Shown here piece by piece: positions 8,362 through 40,843 of a stretch of 40,843 nucleotides of DNA. Position 1 is the stretch's first letter. Every line of letters begins with the position of its first letter. Under the pieces are notes generated by a model. That model ran no database searches and was not told the DNA's origin. It saw only the letters and a list, made by a program, of their open reading frames with translations. The stretch covers positions 77,393 through 118,235 of the forward strand of contig CADCLZ010000001.1 in assembly GCA_902802365.1 (NCBI GenBank). Direction: 5' to 3'. The position numbers and the translations under genes are program-made. The stretch is from an uncultured Erysipelotrichaceae bacterium (GTDB taxonomy: Bacteria > Bacillota_I > Bacilli_A > RFN20 > CAG-826).

Positions 8362-9428
8362 TCCTCACCCATTTAGAACTGAGGAACTTCCGGAACCACG
8401 AATTCCTCTCGCTTGATTTTGCGAAAGGCTTGACGTTGCTCCTAGGTCCCAACGGGGTTGGCAAATCCAACCTCGCCGAAGCGATCTACTATCTCTCCTT
8501 GGCCAGGAGCTGGCGGACCAACGAAGACCGCCTGCTCATCCAGGAAGGGAAAGAAGAAGCCTCGATCCTCGCCAAGATCGAAGAAGGGTCGCTTCGAAGA
8601 ACGATCGCGATCACGATCGGCAAATCCGACAAGAAGATCGAGATCAACGGCAAGAAGGTTCGAAAGCTCTCGGAGCTCTCCGCCCTCGTCAACGTCACGA
8701 GCTTCTCGCCCTCCGATGTCCCCCTCTTCATGGGGAGCCCCGGAGAACGGCGCGGATTCCTCGATATGACGATCGCTAAGCAAAGCCAGGAATACCTCGC
8801 CTTGCTCAATCGGTATGGGAAACTCCTGAAGGAACGGAACGCCGCCCTGAAGGAGGATTACCCAAACATCGAGCTCATCGACGTCTTGGCCCATCAGAGG
8901 GCCGCCCTCGTCGAGCCGATCCTCAACTACCGCCTCCAGGCGATCGCCTCCCTCAACCGCGTCTTGCCCGGAATCCTCCAGGATCTCCGCGGCGAAGACA
9001 GCCACGCCAAGCTCGTCTATCGCCCCTGCATCGCGATCGGCGGGAATTATGAAGAGGAAGCCCACGCCCTCTTCGAAAACGCGAAGGAGAACGATTTAAG
9101 AAGAAAATCGACCTCCGTCGGGCCGCACCGCGAAGACTTCTCGTTCCTCTTGGACGATAAAGATCTCGCGAACTATGGCTCTCAAGGCGAAAACCGCATG
9201 GCGGTCCTCGCCCTGAAATTGGCCCCTTGCCTCTTGATCGAGGAGCCCGACAAAAAACCAATCCTCGTCCTCGATGACGTGGCGAGCGAATTGGACCAGA
9301 ACCGGACCGAGCGCCTGCTGACCCTTATAAAGGCCCTCCCGCAGACGTTCGTGACCGCCACTGAATTAAATACTGCCGGCGCGGACATCATCGATGTACG
9401 CCCCGGAATAGCCACTAGGAGGAGTTAA
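8358..9428 (+). CDS. recF: DNA replication/repair protein RecF
   Basis: [35 protein letters not shown]. Confidence 0.96.
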
Positions 9429-9429
9429 C

Positions 9430-10878
9430 ATGGCTGAAGAAGATACCAACGTTTACGTCAAAGAAGACATCTCCAATGAGCGCGAGCTGGAAATTGCCGA
9501 CGCCCATTACGATGCTTCGAACCTGCAGGTCCTTGAAGGCCTTCAGGCGGTCAGGAAGCGCCCGGGCATGTACATCGCGACCACCGCGAGCCCCGGTCTT
9601 CACCACCTCGTCTGGGAAATCGTCGACAACTCGATCGACGAAGCCCTTGCGGGTTATTGCAAGAACATCGAAGTGACCATCAATCCGGGCAACTCGATCA
9701 CCGTCGTCGATGACGGCCGTGGTGTTCCGGTCGATATCGTCGCCAAAAGCGGCCTTTCCGGCGTCGAGACGGTTTATACCATCCTCCATGCTGGCGGCAA
9801 ATTCGGCGAAGGCGGCGGCTATAAGGTTTCCGGCGGCTTACACGGCGTCGGCGCCTCGGTCGTCAACGCCCTTTCGACCTGGATGGAAGTCACCGTCTGG
9901 CGCGATGGCGGGGAATATTTCATCCGCTTCGAAAACGGCGGACACCCCGTGGACCGCTTGAAGAGAGTGGGCGATAGCAGCAAGCGCGGCACCAAGGTCA
10001 CCTTCCAACCGGACCCGACGATTTTCACCGAAACCATCGAGTACGATTACGACGTGATCAAAAACCACATGCGGCAGATGGCGTTTTTGAACAAAGGCAT
10101 CCGCATCACGTTGAAAGACAACCGTTTGGACGTCCCGATGACCGACACTTTCTACTATGAAGGCGGCATCAAGGAATACGTCAAATACATCAATCAGAAC
10201 AAGCTTCCGGTCAATGAAGACGTCATGTACTTCGAGGGCGCGGAAGACGTCACCTTCGGCGACGGCAAGAGCATCCGCATCTACGCCGAGATCGCTTTGC
10301 AGTGGACCGATTCCTACTCCTCGGATGGTGTCTATTCCTTCTGCAACAACATCTCGACCAAAGAAGGCGGCACCCACGTCGAGGGCCTTAACCTCGCGCT
10401 CAACCGCGTCATCAACGCTTACGCCCGCTTCAAGAAACTCCTCAAAGAGGGCGAAGACAACTACTCCACCGACGACTGCCGCGAAGGGTTGACCGCTGTT
10501 GTTTCGGTCAAGCATCCCGACCCGCAGTATGAAGGACAGACCAAGACCAAACTCGGCAACTCCGAAGTCCGTAAGATCGTCTCCTCGATCGTCGGCGATG
10601 GCCTCCGTCAATATCTCGACGAGAATCCTGGCGTCGCCAGCACGATCGTCGACAAGATCGCGCTGGCCAGAAAAGCGCGCGATGCGGCGAAAATCGCCCG
10701 TGAGAAAATCCGGAAAAGTTCCCTTGAAATCACGACTTTGCCGGGAAAACTCGCCGACTGCTCCAGCCGCGATCCCAAGATCTGCGAACTCTATATCGTC
10801 GAGGGTAATTCCGCAGGCGGATCCGCTAAGCAGGGTAGAGAGCGTAAAAAGCTATCTGGACGTGCCGGAGGATACTGA
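9430..10878 (+). CDS. gyrB: DNA gyrase subunit B, N-terminal part (interrupted near 10845)
   Basis: [53 protein letters not shown]; similarity is lost immediately afterwards. Confidence 0.93.
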
Positions 10879-11075
10879 CTGGATTGATGTGCTGAGCTTC
10901 CGCTTTCAGCAGGACGAATCCGGCTTGCGCTTCCGGGGCAAAGCGGCCAACAGCCCGGTGGAGCTTTACCGGCAGGGAGATACGCTCTGCCTCTTTGACG
11001 GGCTTCGCATTTATTCTCTGCCTCTGGAAGGGGCCTCGCTGCATGTGCTGAAGCTGGGCGTGCCGGTGGACGAGG
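10849..11075 (+). other. Foreign ~230-bp segment replacing the GyrB TOPRIM core
   Basis: Open in another frame ([19 protein letters not shown]...GVPVDE) with CTG/GTG-rich codons unlike host genes; GyrB PLRGK and DxDxDG motifs are absent. Confidence 0.75.
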
Positions 11076-11082
11076 CTCTCCT

Positions 11083-11361
11083 TACTACGCCTATAACGAC
11101 GCCCAGCTCGAGGTTTTGAAGAAACAGCTCAACCTCAAAGAAGGCTATCCGTTCCAGCGTTATAAAGGCTTGGGCGAAATGGATGCCCAGCAGCTTTGGG
11201 AGACCACCATGGACCCGAAAGTCCGCAAGATGATCCGCATCACCGTGGAAGACGCCGCGGAAGCTGAACAACTCTTCACTCAGCTGATGGGTGACGAGGT
11301 CGCTCCGCGCCGTGAGTTCATTCAGAAAAACGCCCAGTTCGTCAAGAACCTTGATATCTGA
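11083..11361 (+). CDS. gyrB: DNA gyrase subunit B, C-terminal fragment
   Basis: YYAYND...QRYKGLGEMDAQQLWETTMDP...LMGDEVAPRREFI...NLDI. Confidence 0.9.
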   Translation, partial: YYAYNDAQLEVLKKQLNLKEGYPFQRYKGLGEMDAQQLWETTMDPKVRKMIRITVEDAAEAEQLFTQLMGDEVAPRREFIQKNAQFVKNLDI

Positions 11362-11375
11362 TAGGAGGCAAGAAT

Positions 11376-14084
11376 ATGTCCGAAGAAGAAAAGAAAGTCA
11401 TTGACGGCGAAGAAGTCGCCGAAGACGAAGAAGAACAAAAAGAACCCTCCAAGAAGACGATCATCGCCTCGAATGAGGGCCATCAATCCGCCGACGCGAT
11501 GTTCGGCGAGGAAGCCGCGATCAGCGGCATCATCCCCGGTCTCACCGACCGCGATGTCGCCAGCGAAGTCCGCACCGCCTTCCTCGATTACTCGATGTCG
11601 GTCATCGTGAGCCGCGCCATCCCCGATGTGCGCGACGGCTTCAAGCCGGTTCAGCGCCGCATCATCTACGGCATGGACGAAGAGGGCATGCTCCCGAACA
11701 AGCCCTATAAGAAGTGCGCGCGTATCGTCGGTGACGTCATGGGTAAATATCACCCGCATGGCGACGCCGCCCTCTATGGCACTTTGGTCCGCTTGGCCCA
11801 GCCCTTCTCCCTCCGTTACCCGTTGGTCGATGGCCACGGCAACTTCGGCTCGATCGATGGCGACGAACCCGCCGCCTACCGTTATACCGAAGCGAGGATG
11901 AACCGCCTTTCCCTCGAAATGGTCCGCGATCTTGATTGCGATACCGTCGATTTCGTCGGGAACTATGACGGCACCGAACTCGAACCTTCCGTCTTGCCCT
12001 GCCGCTTCCCGAACCTTTTGGTCAACGGCTCCCAGGGCATCGCCGTCGGTATGGCCACCAACATGCCGCCGCATAACCTCTGCGAAGCGATCGACGCCTG
12101 CGTCGCCGTCGCCAAGAACCCCGACCTCACCCCGGAAGAGATCATGCAGCAATATCTCTCCGGCCCCGATTTCCCGTCCGGCGGCACCATTTTGGGCCGT
12201 CAAGGCATCTTGGATGCCTACCGGACCGGCCAAGGCTCGATCACCATCCGTTCGAAATATCACATCGAAGAGATGGAAAACGGCAAATCGCGCATCATCG
12301 TCGACGAGATCCCCTACCAGGTCAACAAGTCCGCGATGATCGAAAACATCGCCAACCTCGTTCGCGAGAAGGTGATCGACGGCATCTCCGATGTCCGCGA
12401 TGAGTCGAACAAAGAAGGCATCCGCGTCGTCATCGAGATCAAGAAAGATTCAATCCCCGAAGTCGTCGCGAACAACCTCTTGAAGCACACCCAGCTCCAG
12501 ACCAGCTTTGGCATCATCAACCTCTGCTTGGTCGAAGGCGCGCCGAAAGTGCTCCCGATCAACGAGATCATCCGCAACTACGACGAATTCCAGATCCAAG
12601 TCATCACCCGGAGGACTAAATACCTCCTTAAGAAGGACACCGATCGCCTCCACATCGTCCAAGGCTTGATCCTTGCCCACGATAACATCGACGAAGTCAT
12701 CCACATCATCCGCGATTCGAAGAATGACGAAGAATCCACCCAGCGTTTGTTCGATTCCTTCGGGCTCAGCAAGCCGCAGTGCGAAGCGATCCTCGCGATG
12801 ACCCTCCGTAGATTGCAAGGCATGGAGCAAGATAAGCTCAACGCCGAACGCGAGGGCTTAGAAGCTAATATCGCGGAATATAACCGTTTGCTTTCCTCGC
12901 GCGACAACATCGTCGAACTCTTCGTCGAAGAGCTCCTCGAAATCAAAAAGCGCTTCGGCGACAAACGGTTGACCGAAATCACCGACGAAGCCAGCGATAT
13001 CGATAACGAAGACCTCATCCCGCAGAAGAACATCTTGGTTCTTTTGACCAATAACGGTTATCTGAAGCGCATGGATGACGATACCTTCTCCGCCCAGCAT
13101 CGCGGCGGACGCGGGATCATCGGCATCAAGACCACTTCCGGCGACGCGGTCAAGCTCATGAAGCACATGAAGACCCACACCGACATCCTCTTCTTCACCT
13201 CGATCGGCAAAGTCTACAGGATGCGTGGCTATCAGATCCCCGATTCCGGGAGAACCGGCAAGGGTCTCCCCGTCGTCAATTTCCTGAATCTCGATAAAGA
13301 CGAGAAAGTCGTCTCAATCCTCGCTTGCGATGATTATCCCGAAGGAGATTACCTCTTCTTCGTCAGCAAGAAGGGCATCGTGAAACGTACCCACCTCACC
13401 GAATTCGCTTCCATCCACACCAACGGCAAAATCGCCGCTGGTTTGAAGGAAGACGACGAACTCTTAGACGTCAAACGCACCAACGGCGAAGCCTTCATCT
13501 CCTTGGCTTCCAGCGAAGGCAAAGTCTGCGACTTCAAAGAAGAAGAAGTCCGCGCGATGGGTCGCACCGCCGCCGGCGTCAAGGGCATCGAACTCGAAGA
13601 AGGCGCCGAAGTCGTCGGCGTCACCACCTCGATGGAGGGCGAATTGATCTTGGTCCTCACCTCGAAGGGCTTCGGCAAGATGAGCTATGCCATCGACAAG
13701 GACATCCTCCAAGAGGATGGCACCACCCGTCATTATGATGGCTACCGCCTCACCCACCGCGGCACCAAAGGCGTCATGACCCTCAAGGTCACCCCGAAAA
13801 ACGGCAAATTGGTCGCCCTCCGCGCCGTGAACGGCGACGAAGACCTAATGGTCATCACCTCCGCCGGCATCGTGATCCGCACCCCGCTTTCCGAAGTCAA
13901 GATCGCGGGCCGCAACACCCAAGGCGTGAAGATCATCAACCTCGAAGAACGGCAGAAGGTCGCTTCGATCTCGATCGTCCCGCACGAAGATCCTTCCGAA
14001 GAAGGCGAAGAATTCGTCGAGGAGGAAGAAGCCCAGGAAGAGGCGCCCGTCGAAGCGCCGGTCAATCCTGACGACGTCATCTGA
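11376..14084 (+). CDS. gyrA: DNA gyrase subunit A
   Basis: DVRDGFKPVQRR, KYHPHGD, YRYTE, GyrA-box QHRGGRG, acidic tail. Confidence 0.97.
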   Translation: MSEEEKKVIDGEEVAEDEEEQKEPSKKTIIASNEGHQSADAMFGEEAAISGIIPGLTDRDVASEVRTAFLDYSMSVIVSRAIPDVRDGFKPVQRRIIYGMDEEGMLPNKPYKKCARIVGDVMGKYHPHGDAALYGTLVRLAQPFSLRYPLVDGHGNFGSIDGDEPAAYRYTEARMNRLSLEMVRDLDCDTVDFVGNYDGTELEPSVLPCRFPNLLVNGSQGIAVGMATNMPPHNLCEAIDACVAVAKNPDLTPEEIMQQYLSGPDFPSGGTILGRQGILDAYRTGQGSITIRSKYHIEEMENGKSRIIVDEIPYQVNKSAMIENIANLVREKVIDGISDVRDESNKEGIRVVIEIKKDSIPEVVANNLLKHTQLQTSFGIINLCLVEGAPKVLPINEIIRNYDEFQIQVITRRTKYLLKKDTDRLHIVQGLILAHDNIDEVIHIIRDSKNDEESTQRLFDSFGLSKPQCEAILAMTLRRLQGMEQDKLNAEREGLEANIAEYNRLLSSRDNIVELFVEELLEIKKRFGDKRLTEITDEASDIDNEDLIPQKNILVLLTNNGYLKRMDDDTFSAQHRGGRGIIGIKTTSGDAVKLMKHMKTHTDILFFTSIGKVYRMRGYQIPDSGRTGKGLPVVNFLNLDKDEKVVSILACDDYPEGDYLFFVSKKGIVKRTHLTEFASIHTNGKIAAGLKEDDELLDVKRTNGEAFISLASSEGKVCDFKEEEVRAMGRTAAGVKGIELEEGAEVVGVTTSMEGELILVLTSKGFGKMSYAIDKDILQEDGTTRHYDGYRLTHRGTKGVMTLKVTPKNGKLVALRAVNGDEDLMVITSAGIVIRTPLSEVKIAGRNTQGVKIINLEERQKVASISIVPHEDPSEEGEEFVEEEEAQEEAPVEAPVNPDDVI

Positions 14085-17472: not shown

Positions 17473-17530
17473 GATGAGATTATTATACGGGCGGATGGCT
17501 TTTTAATCCTTCTTTTCTTATAATGTTCCC

Positions 17531-17609
17531 GCCACCGCGAGGGAAGGCTTACGAACCAGGTCAGGTGGGGAACCAAGCAGCCTTAAGTTTGAATTCCTTG
17601 CGCGATGGT
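17531..17609 (+). ncRNA. ffs: Small bacterial SRP RNA (4.5S)
   Basis: Helix-8 signature GGTCAGGTGG-GGAA-CCAAGCAGCC; the ends pair (GCCACCGCG/CGCGATGGT); TATAAT at 17519-17524; T tract follows; next to tadA as in Bacilli. Confidence 0.9.
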
Positions 17610-17624
17610 TTTATTTTTTAAGCA

Positions 17625-37872: not shown

Positions 37873-38508
37873 ATGAGCAAGAAATATGGCCCAAAGAAGA
37901 TGATGAACTCCTCAAGGTTCGTGGATCTTTTGGATGGCATGAGCCAAGAAGACCTTGATAAAGTCGCGGATAAAATCGGGGTTTATGTCAAAGAAAACCC
38001 CGAATATTGCGACAAAGGGAACTATCGGCACCTCTCTAACATTTTCACCTGCATGGCTATTTATCGGACTTTGATTGAAAAAGGGAAAAGTCCTCAGGAA
38101 GCCGAAGAAATCACCTTCAATGCGATGTATCAATATATGCAAAAGCAGCGGAAAACCTTCCAAAGGCTTTCCAAGAAAGGCTGGTTCTGGGGGCTTATCA
38201 AGAAGATCGTCCCGCTTGGCTTTAAAAAAGGAAGCGGCTATGGCTGGGAATACGCCTGGCATAAAGACGACCCGAAGAACCAGTTCAATTTCGAATGCAG
38301 GAGATGCATTTATCAGCAGCTTTTCAAGAAATATGACTTAGTCCGTTTTGGGCCGAAATTCTGCTATAACGACATCGTCGTTTATGGCGAATTGGATCGA
38401 ACCGATTTCAAGAGGACCAAAACCCTATGCCGCGGCGACGAGGAATGCGACTTCAAATTCGTGCGTTACAAAAAAGACGAGAAATTTGAAAGAAGCCAGA
38501 GCGTTTAA
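37873..38508 (+). CDS. L-2-amino-thiazoline-4-carboxylic acid hydrolase-family protein
   Basis: CIY...FCYND...RTKTLCRGDEECDF pattern; GGAG SD. Confidence 0.8.
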   Translation: MSKKYGPKKMMNSSRFVDLLDGMSQEDLDKVADKIGVYVKENPEYCDKGNYRHLSNIFTCMAIYRTLIEKGKSPQEAEEITFNAMYQYMQKQRKTFQRLSKKGWFWGLIKKIVPLGFKKGSGYGWEYAWHKDDPKNQFNFECRRCIYQQLFKKYDLVRFGPKFCYNDIVVYGELDRTDFKRTKTLCRGDEECDFKFVRYKKDEKFERSQSV

Positions 38509-38603
38509 ATCCGAAGAAACTTTTCATAACTTTTTATCGCACGCCAAAGAAAAACATCCTTTTAAGGATGCTTGTCTTTTTATAAAAGATTGATGGGCGA
38601 GGT

Positions 38604-39122
38604 TTAATCGCCGCTGGAGAAGGAAACGCTCGATCCTTCTTGGTTCCTGCGGTCCAAAATGCAATCAATCGCGATCACGAGGGCGCAGAAGAAGGCCTGG
38701 TCTTCGCTATCATCGATCGTCAAGACGAAGGAGTCGCGGAGCGAGACCCTGCGGGCGACGTGCCCAACATCGGCGCCGTTTTTCGTGACGCGGAAGTTGA
38801 AATCGAGGATGTTGCCGTCGAGGACGATCTCTTCGGGATAGCGATCCACGGTGAATTTGCTGCGAAGGGAGAGGAATTTCTTGGAGATGCGGCAGATGAT
38901 CTGCTTGTTCTCCGGATTGATGATGAAGGCGCGGCGGGTGAAGAGCCTCCAGAACTTGTTGCGGATGATGAAAAGCAGCTTGCCGTTTTTATCGTAGAAC
39001 CGCTTCTTGTGGGTGAAGGTGAAGATGTTGCCCTTCACTTCATAGATGTGGTTGTCCGCCATATCGGTGATGTAGGAGGATCCGCCGAGGGTGATCCATT
39101 TGTTTCTGATTTTGTATTCCAT
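38604..39122 (-). CDS. LURP-one-related / Tubby C-2 (scramblase-like) protein
   Basis: YEVKGNIFT, LDGNILDFNF, DSFVLTI, ALVIAID. Confidence 0.85.
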   Translation of the reverse strand: MEYKIRNKWITLGGSSYITDMADNHIYEVKGNIFTFTHKKRFYDKNGKLLFIIRNKFWRLFTRRAFIINPENKQIICRISKKFLSLRSKFTVDRYPEEIVLDGNILDFNFRVTKNGADVGHVARRVSLRDSFVLTIDDSEDQAFFCALVIAIDCILDRRNQEGSSVSFSSGD

Positions 39123-39394
39123 AAAGAACCTCTATAAGATTTTGCCACAGCCCCTTTTTCTAAAAAAAGAGTTTTTTATCATACACGTACGCCCGCGTAC
39201 ATATTTTCTTTTCTTATATATGCGATCGCCCGCAGATGTTCATTTCCAAGGCGTTTTAGAAAAGAAAATGAGGGAAAACAATATTTTCGGAGGGAGAAAA
39301 AACCAGAGAAAAGAAGAAATTTTCAAGAAAATAAATATATTTTAAAAAATCTTTTGAAGAAATTACTCCGATCACAAGCCACTTTTTAGGTTTT

Positions 39395-39454
39395 TCGAAA
39401 AAAATTTTAAAAAAATGTATTGACACACTCATATATAGGTGTAAACTAATCGAA
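39395..39454 (+). promoter_or_regulatory. Strong stable-RNA-type sigma-A promoter with UP element
   Basis: TTGACA 39420-39425, 16-bp spacer, TAAACT 39442-39447, preceded by AAAAAAATTTTAAAAAAAT. Confidence 0.8.
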
Positions 39455-40843
39455 CCCGCAAGGGAAACGGGGATGCGAATCTCCGACACTGCGGGAAGGA
39501 TCCAAGAGCTTGCTCTTGGATGCTAAAAGGAAAGCTGGACGCCCACGGTTCACTAAGAACCGGAAAGGCCCAACTCCTTCGAAAGAAGGGACCCAACGCC
39601 GCTTGAACGACGTTGGAGCAGGAATCTCCGCCCGCGGTAAACCGCAAAAGAGAGAGGCCTCCGGAAACCGGCGCAAGCCGGGAGGAAGGAAGGTCAAGGG
39701 CCCTGGCATTGAGCCAGGAAGCCACCGCCGAAATGACCCTGGCGGTCCGTGATCGGAAAAGAAAGGGAATTCCGAAAAGCCTTGGAAAAGGAACATTCGG
39801 AAGCAGGGAACAAGCGACTTCACGCTTCAGACCCTCGCGGGAACGGAAACGCCCGCCCAGTGCACTGGAAAAACGTTGCGTGCCGACAAAACCTCTCTCC
39901 CTGAGGCACAATGCGGCAAAGGGTAATACCCGCTAGGAATCCTCCCCAGCCTGGTAAACCAGAAAAACGAAGGAAGACGGGAAGAAACGGCCCCAAAACC
40001 GTGAAACCGCCAAATCGAGGAAGGCAACTTCCTCCAAAGGCATAGCCACCCATCAGGTAGACCTGAGAATCTGGCAGAAAGGAATGACCCCTCCGCAAGG
40101 GAGGCCATCCTGGAGAAGGGCTGCATCGAAAGATGATGTCCGCAACGGAATTCCTACCGTTGCCTAGTAGAACTAGGAATTCAAATCTGGAATGTGGAGC
40201 GATCCACAAAGGAGCTCAAAACTCCAAGCCCCGAAGAAAGGCTCAGGTAAACCGAAAAATCTCTTCTCCCTCCATCTCCTCCCATCGTGAAATCCCTTGG
40301 TGAGATGTCTGGGTAGCCACCTTAACTGGTGCGGCGGGAGCCTCTCCGCCAAGTGAAACTTGAAGATGAGGTTGCGAATCACAATCTGGCTTCGGCCTCG
40401 GGGTGATCCGTGAACGCCTGGAAATTCATAACCAGGTCGGTGCCAATAGAGGCTCGGCGCGCGGTAAACCGCTGGAAAAGCCTCGACCCTAGGCTACGGT
40501 CTAGGCGAGATCGAAGACGCAAGTCCTCGAAGGAAGTCGTTCCACCCTGCAATTCGTGAAGTCGGAACGTGGCAAAGATACTTAGGCGAACGAAGACGTA
40601 CCCTAAGATCGATGTCGAGACCTGCTAGAAGCAATTCAATACAGGCCTAGGAAGATAAGAGATCTTCTCGCCGGTAAACCGGAGAAACAAAAACTTGATC
40701 CTGAATGCGATTCCCTTTCAAGAAGGAACCGAGGTAAGGACCGATTCCCTCGGGAAGTGGCTGGTTGGAATCTCCCACACGGTAAACCGTAAACATGAAA
40801 TCCCCCGTCAACTTCGGAGTCTTGAAGACGTTAACTCGAAAGA
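39453..40843 (+). ncRNA. Putative very large (>=1.35 kb) highly structured noncoding RNA, family unassigned; 3' end may lie beyond the window
   Basis: No credible ORF; near-continuous hairpins with GNRA, UUCG, UACG and CUUG loops on the + strand; long-range helices; A-rich linkers; begins directly at the promoter. Confidence 0.8.
39634..40790 (+). repeat. Seven dispersed GG-TA(A/G)A-CC hairpins
   Basis: GGTAAACC at 39636, 39953, 40246, 40463, 40673, 40781 and GGTAGACC at 40056, with differing but complementary flanks. Confidence 0.85.

Follow-up and report, generated by a model that had tools for sequence, protein, structure and literature searches.

A ~1,460-nucleotide stand-alone structured RNA from uncultured rumen Bacilli that probably represents a new family of large bacterial RNAs

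We analysed a 40,843-nucleotide (nt) stretch of the genome of an uncultured Erysipelotrichaceae bacterium (G000:C1:77393-118235; here called the window), the right edge of which is the end of the contig. The last part of the window, 39454-40843 on the + strand, is very probably a stand-alone gene for a trans-acting non-coding RNA (ncRNA) of ~1,460 nt, belonging to a family that matches no described RNA family. The gene body was delimited by nhmmer alignment and covariation, and its 3' end is cut off by the contig end. A previous interpretation of the window, made from its letters alone (the sequence-only reading), had proposed a giant structured RNA at this position, either of a new class or a greatly expanded relative of the GOLLD- and ROOL-type RNAs. 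The first of these proposals is borne out by the RNA's own promoter and terminator, by covariation that also holds in sequences kept out of the structure prediction, and by the finding of neither a coding signal nor an Rfam match.

The promoter scan placed a sigma-70-type promoter at 39420-39447 (+ strand), consisting of a -35 box TTGACA (39420-39425), a 16-nt spacer and a -10 box TAAACT (39442-39447), with 10 of 12 consensus matches. The RNA would thus start near 39454, ~7 nt after the -10 box, and both promoter and start site agree with those predicted earlier. On reading the sequence, an A/T-rich tract directly 5' of the -35 box (39395-39419, + strand) resembles an UP element and may work as one. 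Among 44 distinct upstream regions of the RNA family, the 22 nt 5' of the -35 box have a mean A+T content of 86%, the -35 box reads TTGNNN in all 44 and the -10 box TATAGT in 41, and the two boxes are spaced by 16 nt (42 regions) or 17 nt (two regions). By these motifs the family promoter is of the strong sigma-70 type. Approximately 28 of 41 distinct upstream regions of relatives also contain a perfect palindrome ~20 nt 5' of the -35 box, with half-sites of 7-8 nt around a centre of 3-5 nt (e.g. loci L030, L051, L100 and L111). Its half-sites co-vary between copies, and it resembles the operator of a dimeric regulator, placed where an activator might bind. The window copy has no such palindrome; instead, it has another upstream motif in common with the type-b copies of genomes G059 and G067.

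In relatives that lie inside contigs the distance from the -10 box to the start of the RNA is ~7 nt, and the 3' end consists of a conserved, GC-rich stem-loop with a U-run behind it. This terminator is present in the full-length relatives and it covaries. Between the -10 box and the U-run, the 28 near-full-length copies span 1,398-1,479 nt. The nhmmer model, which was built from two complete copies, has 1498 positions (1-6 being the -10 box), and the window copy aligns to positions 41-1451; it is therefore without only the last 45-70 nt, terminator included. The statement of the sequence-only reading that there is no terminator is thus correct for the window itself, because the contig stops at 40843, but not for the family, whose members reach the terminator 45-70 nt further on. 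The second RNA copy of the same genome, which is 71% identical and lies at the end of contig C2, has the terminator. We conclude that the predicted gene is ~1,460 nt long and stand-alone, with its own promoter and intrinsic terminator.

The RNA folds into ~50 mostly short hairpins, and at least 43 of its helices are backed by covariation. An alignment of 28 copies (A1, 1,627 columns) was folded with RNAalifold, giving 360 pairs in 73 helices, and compared with controls in which the 3' partners were slid by 1-3 columns or the columns were shuffled (n = 500). In the predicted structure 91.2% of cells are paired (34.5-45.7% after sliding) and 231 of the 360 pairs show a change on both sides (102-134 after sliding). 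The covariation score of 0.405 compares with 0.070-0.110 for the slid structures and was reached by none of the 500 shuffles. Since the 360-pair structure came from the same 28-copy alignment, it was tested against a held-out set of 37 sequences from metagenome and genome contigs, each < 96% identical to any other sequence used. Here, 90.1% of cells are paired, as against 35-47% after sliding; double changes occur in 246 of the 360 pairs, and 119 of the 360 show a compensatory pair type that is absent from the 28 training copies. Refolding all 65 sequences gave 75 helices, 43 of which are at least 85% paired with at least two covarying pairs. The consensus fold has 49 hairpin loops, of which eight are mainly GNRA and eight are U-R-N-A tetraloops closed by G-C, which make up the recurrent motif GGU(A/G)NACC. 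The conservation profile of the 65 sequences is highest in a core at 40405-40704 (+ strand), which has a column identity of 0.81-0.85 and, in 40-58% of its columns, a conservation of at least 95% that extends to loops and junctions; column identity in the 5' 1,000 nt is 0.60-0.77. The sub-alignment of the core (A3) contains 39 pairs, 20 of them with compensatory changes, and is the basis of the covariance model R1 used below.

The same architecture is visible in the window copy. On the + strand, 39453-40843 contains 16 hairpins that are capped by GNRA, UNCG or CUUG loops and have stems of at least three pairs, 10 of which have stems of at least four pairs. In 500 dinucleotide-preserving shuffles the corresponding numbers were 4.2 ± 2.0 (maximum 11) and 1.5 ± 1.1 (maximum 6), and on the - strand they are five and three. 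All 11 hairpins listed by the sequence-only reading were found in their places, within 1-2 nt, and 10 of them coincide with helices of the consensus structure derived from the 65 homologues. In base composition the sense strand is rich in A and poor in U (A 30%, C 27%, G 27%, U 16%). Minimum free energies of -509.9 kcal/mol (+ strand) and -545.3 kcal/mol (- strand) do not separate the strands; the + strand was chosen because of the promoter, the terminator, the identities of the loops and the G-U pairs.

The window RNA encodes no protein. Its - strand contains open frames of up to 363 amino acids (translation table 11) or 491 amino acids (table 4), and these frames, together with the mosaic composition of the window copy at a contig end (see below), could be taken to mean that there is no real RNA gene, but a pseudogene, a product of misassembly or a sequence that codes for protein in one or other genetic code. 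We find this barely credible. The longest stop-to-stop frames of 61 sequences have a median length of 187 amino acids (table 11); in 56 of these sequences they are on the - strand, as the base composition would lead one to expect. The antisense frames are out of register among homologues: of the window's two largest frames, one stays open in only 8 of 63 aligned homologues and the other in 33 of 65, and the lengths of antisense-frame stretches are spread across all three residues modulo 3. Of the 6,257 internal gap runs, only 1,112 have a length divisible by three. Column variability shows no period-3 signal in any region, its period-3 peak ranking 340th of 726 overall and 45th to 156th of 251 in five sub-regions. 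The earlier observation that no open reading frame (ORF) led by a Shine-Dalgarno sequence is present is consistent with these data, the longest open frames being on the - strand, unconserved in frame and lacking a period-3 signal. Moreover, many independent assemblies contain the family within long contigs that have intact flanks, and it covaries as RNA.

Relatives were sought among the 4,227 models of Rfam 15, using cmscan at the gathering threshold and additional scans of three copies at E ≤ 10. At the gathering threshold nothing matched the RNA element in the window or in eight homologous loci, the sole match in the rest of the window being to signal recognition particle RNA. The scans at E ≤ 10 gave four, zero and one chance-level matches, none of them to a large RNA family, rRNA, intron or RNase P, and the models for transfer-messenger RNA (tmRNA), 6S RNA and signal recognition particle (SRP) RNA did not match the element in the same scans. 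The absence of rRNA, RNase P, tmRNA and group II intron signatures, noted at the outset from the letters, was thereby confirmed, and the comparison with Rfam that had been suggested as a check gave no full-length match to any known family. Rfam includes models for ROOL, GOLLD and OLE. Outside the element, the only Rfam matches in the eight homologous loci (12-19 kb each) were one tRNA, ~3.7 kb upstream, and one tmRNA, ~2.3 kb upstream, and ARAGORN found no tRNA in 39000-40843 of the window.

The element could still be a very divergent or expanded form of a known large RNA, be it GOLLD, ROOL, OLE, a group II intron, rRNA or RNase P. It has the general look of such RNAs, with GNRA-capped hairpins, A-rich linkers, a Bacillota host and a ROOL-like rumen habitat, and at ~1.46 kb it is close in length to 16S rRNA. 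However, none of the three copies matched any of these families at E ≤ 10, a promoter and a terminator belong to the element itself, tRNAs are absent from it and its immediate surroundings, and normal 16S rRNA and RNase P RNA are found elsewhere in carrier genomes; we regard a relationship of this kind as highly improbable. Ordinary 16S rRNA is present at other loci in three of the five carriers searched, full length in two (G007 and G022), and type B RNase P RNA elsewhere in all five; the element is therefore no divergent stand-in for either. The genome of the window gave no match to 16S rRNA, type B RNase P RNA or 6S RNA, which is uninformative as the assembly is 86.78% complete and in 140 contigs. 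Three specific candidates find no support. For small-subunit (SSU) rRNA, there was no SSU match at E ≤ 10 in three copies, the element has its own terminator, and 16S rRNA is present elsewhere in carriers. For a group II intron, there was no match to an Rfam intron and no conserved ORF; moreover, an RNA with its own promoter and terminator is neither an intron nor an operon spacer. For the expanded GOLLD/ROOL relative, the second proposal of the sequence-only reading, there was no covariance match at E ≤ 10, no association with tRNAs or prophages and no copy in viral and phage collections.

The element is longer than 500 nt, non-coding and stand-alone and has covarying helices. It therefore falls among the large ornate bacterial ncRNAs, a grouping that is descriptive and implies no homology. 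Sections of PMC5737381 describe ROOL as a 581-nt large ornate ncRNA of Bacillota with many covarying helices, first seen in cow rumen data; they place ROOL and GOLLD often near tRNA genes and in prophages, and give GOLLD as the largest ornate bacterial RNA until now outside rRNA and group II introns. The window RNA resembles ROOL in being large, ornate and non-coding, in its Bacillota host and rumen habitat, in its covarying helices and in being a stand-alone gene. It differs in that it is, at ~1,460 nt, ~2.5 times as long, is confined to one genus as far as searched, has no link to tRNAs or phages, matches no covariance model and has no established junctions or pseudoknots. GOLLD, which is ~800 nt long, is likewise a stand-alone structured RNA; the window RNA is longer, does not match its model and is not in viral or phage collections. 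OLE, too, is a large and abundant structured RNA of Bacillota, and it functions as a particle, but its model does not match and no conserved partner gene adjoins the window RNA. The initial estimate that the RNA is longer than OLE, ROOL or typical GOLLD RNAs is, for ROOL and GOLLD, in line with these lengths. We conclude that the RNA family is new, and that the concept into which it fits is that of the large ornate bacterial RNAs.

A blastn search found related sequence in 8 of 24 genomes of the same genus and in none of 16 genomes from other families of the order; with a complete copy as query, the RNA was found in 20 of 58 genomes of this genus of ruminant-gut Bacilli, that of the window included. 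Carriers usually have one to three diverged copies. Copies within one genome are 62-76% identical, and on the RNA tree some are sisters and others distant. The core covariance model R1 (164 positions) matched none of 150 other genomes of the order (47 genera), the only matches being the two copies in the genome of the window. An exact core pattern had 28 matches in a collection of 185,579 species genomes. All 28 are metagenome-assembled genomes, labelled by their depositors as Bacilli, Bacillales, Erysipelotrichaceae or 'Candidatus Enteromonas', and many of their isolate names refer to ruminants (goat, roe deer and water deer rumen or abomasum, reindeer, 'ruminal'). The same pattern occurs in 84 stretches of metagenome contigs and in no viral contig, and blastn found no match in phage records and plasmids. 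On a GyrA tree of 57 genomes of the genus the carriers fall into clades: a clade of 12 genomes, all of them carriers; G050, G059 and G067; G017 and G066; G022 alone; and the genome of the window (G000) with G010, beside the non-carriers G052 and G058. This pattern fits an old RNA with mainly vertical descent and losses, and perhaps some transfer. Carriers make up 5 of 32 high-quality and 15 of 26 lower-quality genomes of the genus. The excess in the latter may reflect clade structure, or a conserved repeated core that breaks assemblies. Both copies in the genome of the window lie at contig ends.

Public sequence data point to transcription. At least half of the sampled 31-mers of the window RNA were present in 20 public runs, 15 of which are recorded as RNA (seven bovine or sheep gut studies). 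Four runs (X2, X5 and X8, recorded as RNA, and X1, recorded as 'DNA?') gave contigs over 39462-40843 only and nothing in 38000-39424. Depths in these runs sum over members of the family and were left out of account. In the metagenome collection, 48 of 80 contigs lie wholly within the transcribed span. Of these RNA-only contigs, 36 start at model positions 13-30, which is 7-24 nt after the -10 box, 31 end at positions 1415-1450, just before or inside the terminator stem, and 25 do both. Thirty-nine of the 48 are in sense orientation (binomial p = 1.5e-5), and neither the conserved promoter nor the U-run is present in any of them. This is the picture to be expected of assembled transcripts from a discrete RNA of ~1.42-1.45 kb, and it is likely that the RNA is abundantly transcribed as such a molecule. 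The sequence-only reading had called it highly expressed; its presence in RNA libraries and the transcript-like contig ends speak for this, but there is no clean DNA control and high expression is therefore only likely.

We propose that the RNA acts as a compact folded RNA particle rather than as an mRNA, a leader or an antisense RNA. The functional site would be the near-invariant 3' core at 40405-40704, which would bind a conserved partner or substrate, and the more variable 5' 1,000 nt would be a scaffold whose architecture depends on GNRA loops, seven U-R-N-A loops closed by G-C and A-rich linkers. Seven identical hairpin tops might be docking modules or reiterated protein sites. Within this picture a ribonucleoprotein scaffold is plausible, if well short of probable, and an RNA-only, possibly multimeric assembly like ROOL, GOLLD and OLE is somewhat doubtful; according to parts of PMC12286853, ROOL is a homo-octameric cage, GOLLD a multimeric nanocage, and OLE a dimer that binds partner proteins such as OapA. 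A function of some other kind is distinctly unlikely. These gradings, and those given below for a sponge and a ribozyme, are soft because long-range helices and multimer contacts are not established.

The seven hairpin tops share the motif GGU(A/G)NACC, which occurs seven times in the window RNA (1,391 nt) but only once on the + strand and four times on the - strand of the other 39,452 nt; the G-C-closed U-R-N-A loops are kept in 60-64 of the 65 sequences. All seven are on the + strand. The first, at 39636-39643, is a U-R-N-A tetraloop closed by G-C on a helix that is 100% paired, with two covarying pairs. The second (39953-39960) caps the helix 39951-39954 with 39959-39962 (99% paired, three covarying pairs). 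The third (40056-40063) is folded by the consensus into a 5-pair hairpin with a 3-nt loop (40054-40058 with 40061-40065; 93% paired, three covarying pairs). The fourth (40246-40253) caps 40245-40247 with 40252-40254, and the fifth (40463-40470), located from conservation and motif positions, lies within a 23-nt stretch that is at least 95% conserved in all 65 sequences. The sixth (40673-40680) and seventh (40781-40788) cap 40671-40674 with 40679-40682 (99% paired) and 40779-40782 with 40787-40790 (100% paired) respectively.

Hairpins repeated in this way could titrate an RNA-binding protein, and the RNA would then be a sponge or decoy like CsrB/RsmZ or 6S RNA. CsrB carries reiterated hairpin-loop motifs in one highly transcribed RNA, and the concentration of the motif in the window RNA, the conservation of its loops, the strong promoter and the presence of the RNA in RNA libraries would all suit such a role. 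However, repeated sites are all that a sponge needs, and the window RNA has in addition at least 43 other covarying helices and a 300-nt core with near-invariant loops and junctions. CsrB and RsmZ are a few hundred nt long and consist mainly of repeated sites; the window RNA shares their reiterated hairpin-loop motifs but differs from them in its loop motif, its ~50 hairpins and its near-invariant core. The genes nearby include no candidate for a binding protein. We consider a sponge unlikely. The core might instead be the active site of a large ribozyme. The size and complexity of the RNA and the long conserved unpaired stretches in 40405-40704 are compatible with this, as is the argument of Weinberg et al. 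(2017; PMC5737381) that unusual biochemical functions, catalysis among them, are particularly to be expected of large bacterial RNAs with complex folds. On the other hand, the RNA has no evident substrate, reaction or processing site and no similarity to the ribozyme families of Rfam, and the structures solved so far for ROOL, GOLLD and OLE, the RNAs that had prompted this argument, are assemblies for which the consulted parts of PMC12286853 report no catalysis. A ribozyme therefore seems to us distinctly unlikely.

Several observations weigh against our reading of the element as a new RNA that acts as a compact particle. Every step of the proposed mechanism is inferred. An all-against-all covariation scan of the 65 sequences found 38 stacks of at least four pairs, of which the long-range ones are at noise level and clash with local helices, and the five long-range helices proposed by RNAalifold have little or no double-change support; since long-range helices and pseudoknots are thus not established, the compactness of the particle stays conjectural. 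A candidate loop-loop pairing of 40423 with 40551, judged by eye, showed no covariation. Two 6-nt palindromes are almost fixed (40646-40651 in 65 of 65 sequences and 40457-40462 in 63 of 64) and lie partly outside predicted helices, and two 4-nt loop palindromes are conserved in 82-88%. In the 65 sequences no palindromic loop switches from one palindrome to another, so that covariation gives no evidence for symmetric multimer contacts, and none against kissing contacts either. The RNA is absent from 38 of the 58 genomes of the genus, including 27 of the 32 high-quality ones, and is therefore dispensable. When flanking ORFs were clustered over 38 distinct contexts no constant neighbour was found, the best being M18 aminopeptidase (9 of 38) and ABC ATPases (7 of 38), and hence no partner protein is indicated. 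As to expression, run X1 ('DNA?') has the same coverage as the RNA runs, which are therefore neither a control nor evidence for the transcript start; RNA libraries can hold DNA, the sample types of the RNA-only contigs are unconfirmed, and conserved ends that break DNA assemblies could also yield such contigs. Novelty rests on Rfam 15 and on main-text literature, in which no RNA of such size or lineage was found; supplements were not covered, and the supplementary list of 224 motifs in PMC5737381, which could bear on novelty, was outside the scope.

The window copy itself, compared over 39433-40843 with the copies in G059, G067 and G045, is a mosaic. Its 3' ~715 nt (40130-40843) are 99-100% identical to the type-b copies of G059 and G067, whose GyrA proteins are only 73% identical to that of the window's genome, and 39868-39953 is 98% identical to a copy in G045; the remainder is 29-80% identical to anything else. 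The mosaic, which also counts against our reading, may reflect recombination of copies across species or a chimeric contig end. Conclusions at the level of the family are independent of it. High identity between genomes that are so far apart in GyrA would suit a selfish or mobile-element RNA (for instance a satellite, a non-autonomous element or an RNA of defence or counter-defence), which would owe its spread to duplication and horizontal exchange and not to any service to the cell. Diverged paralogues in several copies and differing contexts, solo 3' ends, and a RelB-PIN cassette between two terminator copies at one locus also suit such an RNA. However, misassembly at a contig end could account for the mosaic, no recurrent transposase, integrase, reverse transcriptase or phage gene adjoins the RNA, and viral contigs, phage records and plasmids contained no matches. 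The carrier clades of the GyrA tree, among them the all-carrier clade of 12, fit mainly vertical descent. A selfish origin is thus very unlikely in our view.

If our reading of the element as a stand-alone ncRNA gene is taken further, the RNA would be the first member of an undescribed class of giant RNAs, ~1.46 kb long, about twice the size of GOLLD and the longest structured bacterial ncRNA outside the ribosome, abundant in uncultured rumen Bacilli and present as several diverged paralogues per cell. It would form a very large RNA-based particle, either a homo- or hetero-multimeric assembly of RNA or a ribonucleoprotein machine of a new kind, and its invariant 3' core would be catalytic or bind a ligand. 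We put this forward tentatively, with somewhat less than even confidence. A stand-alone, covariation-supported RNA of ~1,460 nt would set a new upper limit for bacterial ncRNA outside the ribosome. That genomes of 1-2.4 Mb keep several diverged paralogues, all with strong promoters of their own, speaks for a genuine contribution to fitness in a major livestock-associated habitat. The RNA is a ready target for cryo-electron microscopy, chemical probing and pull-downs: at least 65 distinct natural sequences are available for modelling, the boundaries are clear enough for in vitro transcription, and the RNA is present in public rumen RNA libraries. It bears on a question stated as open in PMC12286853, the structure paper on ROOL, GOLLD and OLE, namely whether cages and other assemblies are common among large natural RNAs.

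The genes that flank the RNA are ordinary and differ between copies, and include those for a LURP-one-related protein, a nitroreductase, a glycosyltransferase, an M18 aminopeptidase and ABC transporters. In the window, the gene adjoining the RNA promoter encodes a LURP-one-related protein (PF04525; 38604-39122, - strand) and is divergent. The window also contains gyrB-like and gyrA genes (9430-14084, + strand); the locus is therefore chromosomal, and the proposal of the sequence-only reading to that effect stands, given these genes and the housekeeping flanks. A small bacterial SRP RNA is located at 17529-17614 (+ strand; 48.5 bits, gathering score 40). At locus L024 (10300-11059; G007:C7), which has a complete RNA copy at 8752-10210, a RelB antitoxin gene and a PIN-domain gene follow directly 3' of the RNA terminator, and a second, 43-nt terminator copy follows the cassette, a layout suggestive of insertion at the terminator or of its duplication by the cassette. 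Solo pieces that comprise just the last 45-130 nt of the RNA (its 3' end with the terminator; 87-95% identical) were found at G046:C95:13-144, G046:C205:7064-7189, G065:C136:2989-3036 and G007:C7:33016-33058, some of them at contig ends.

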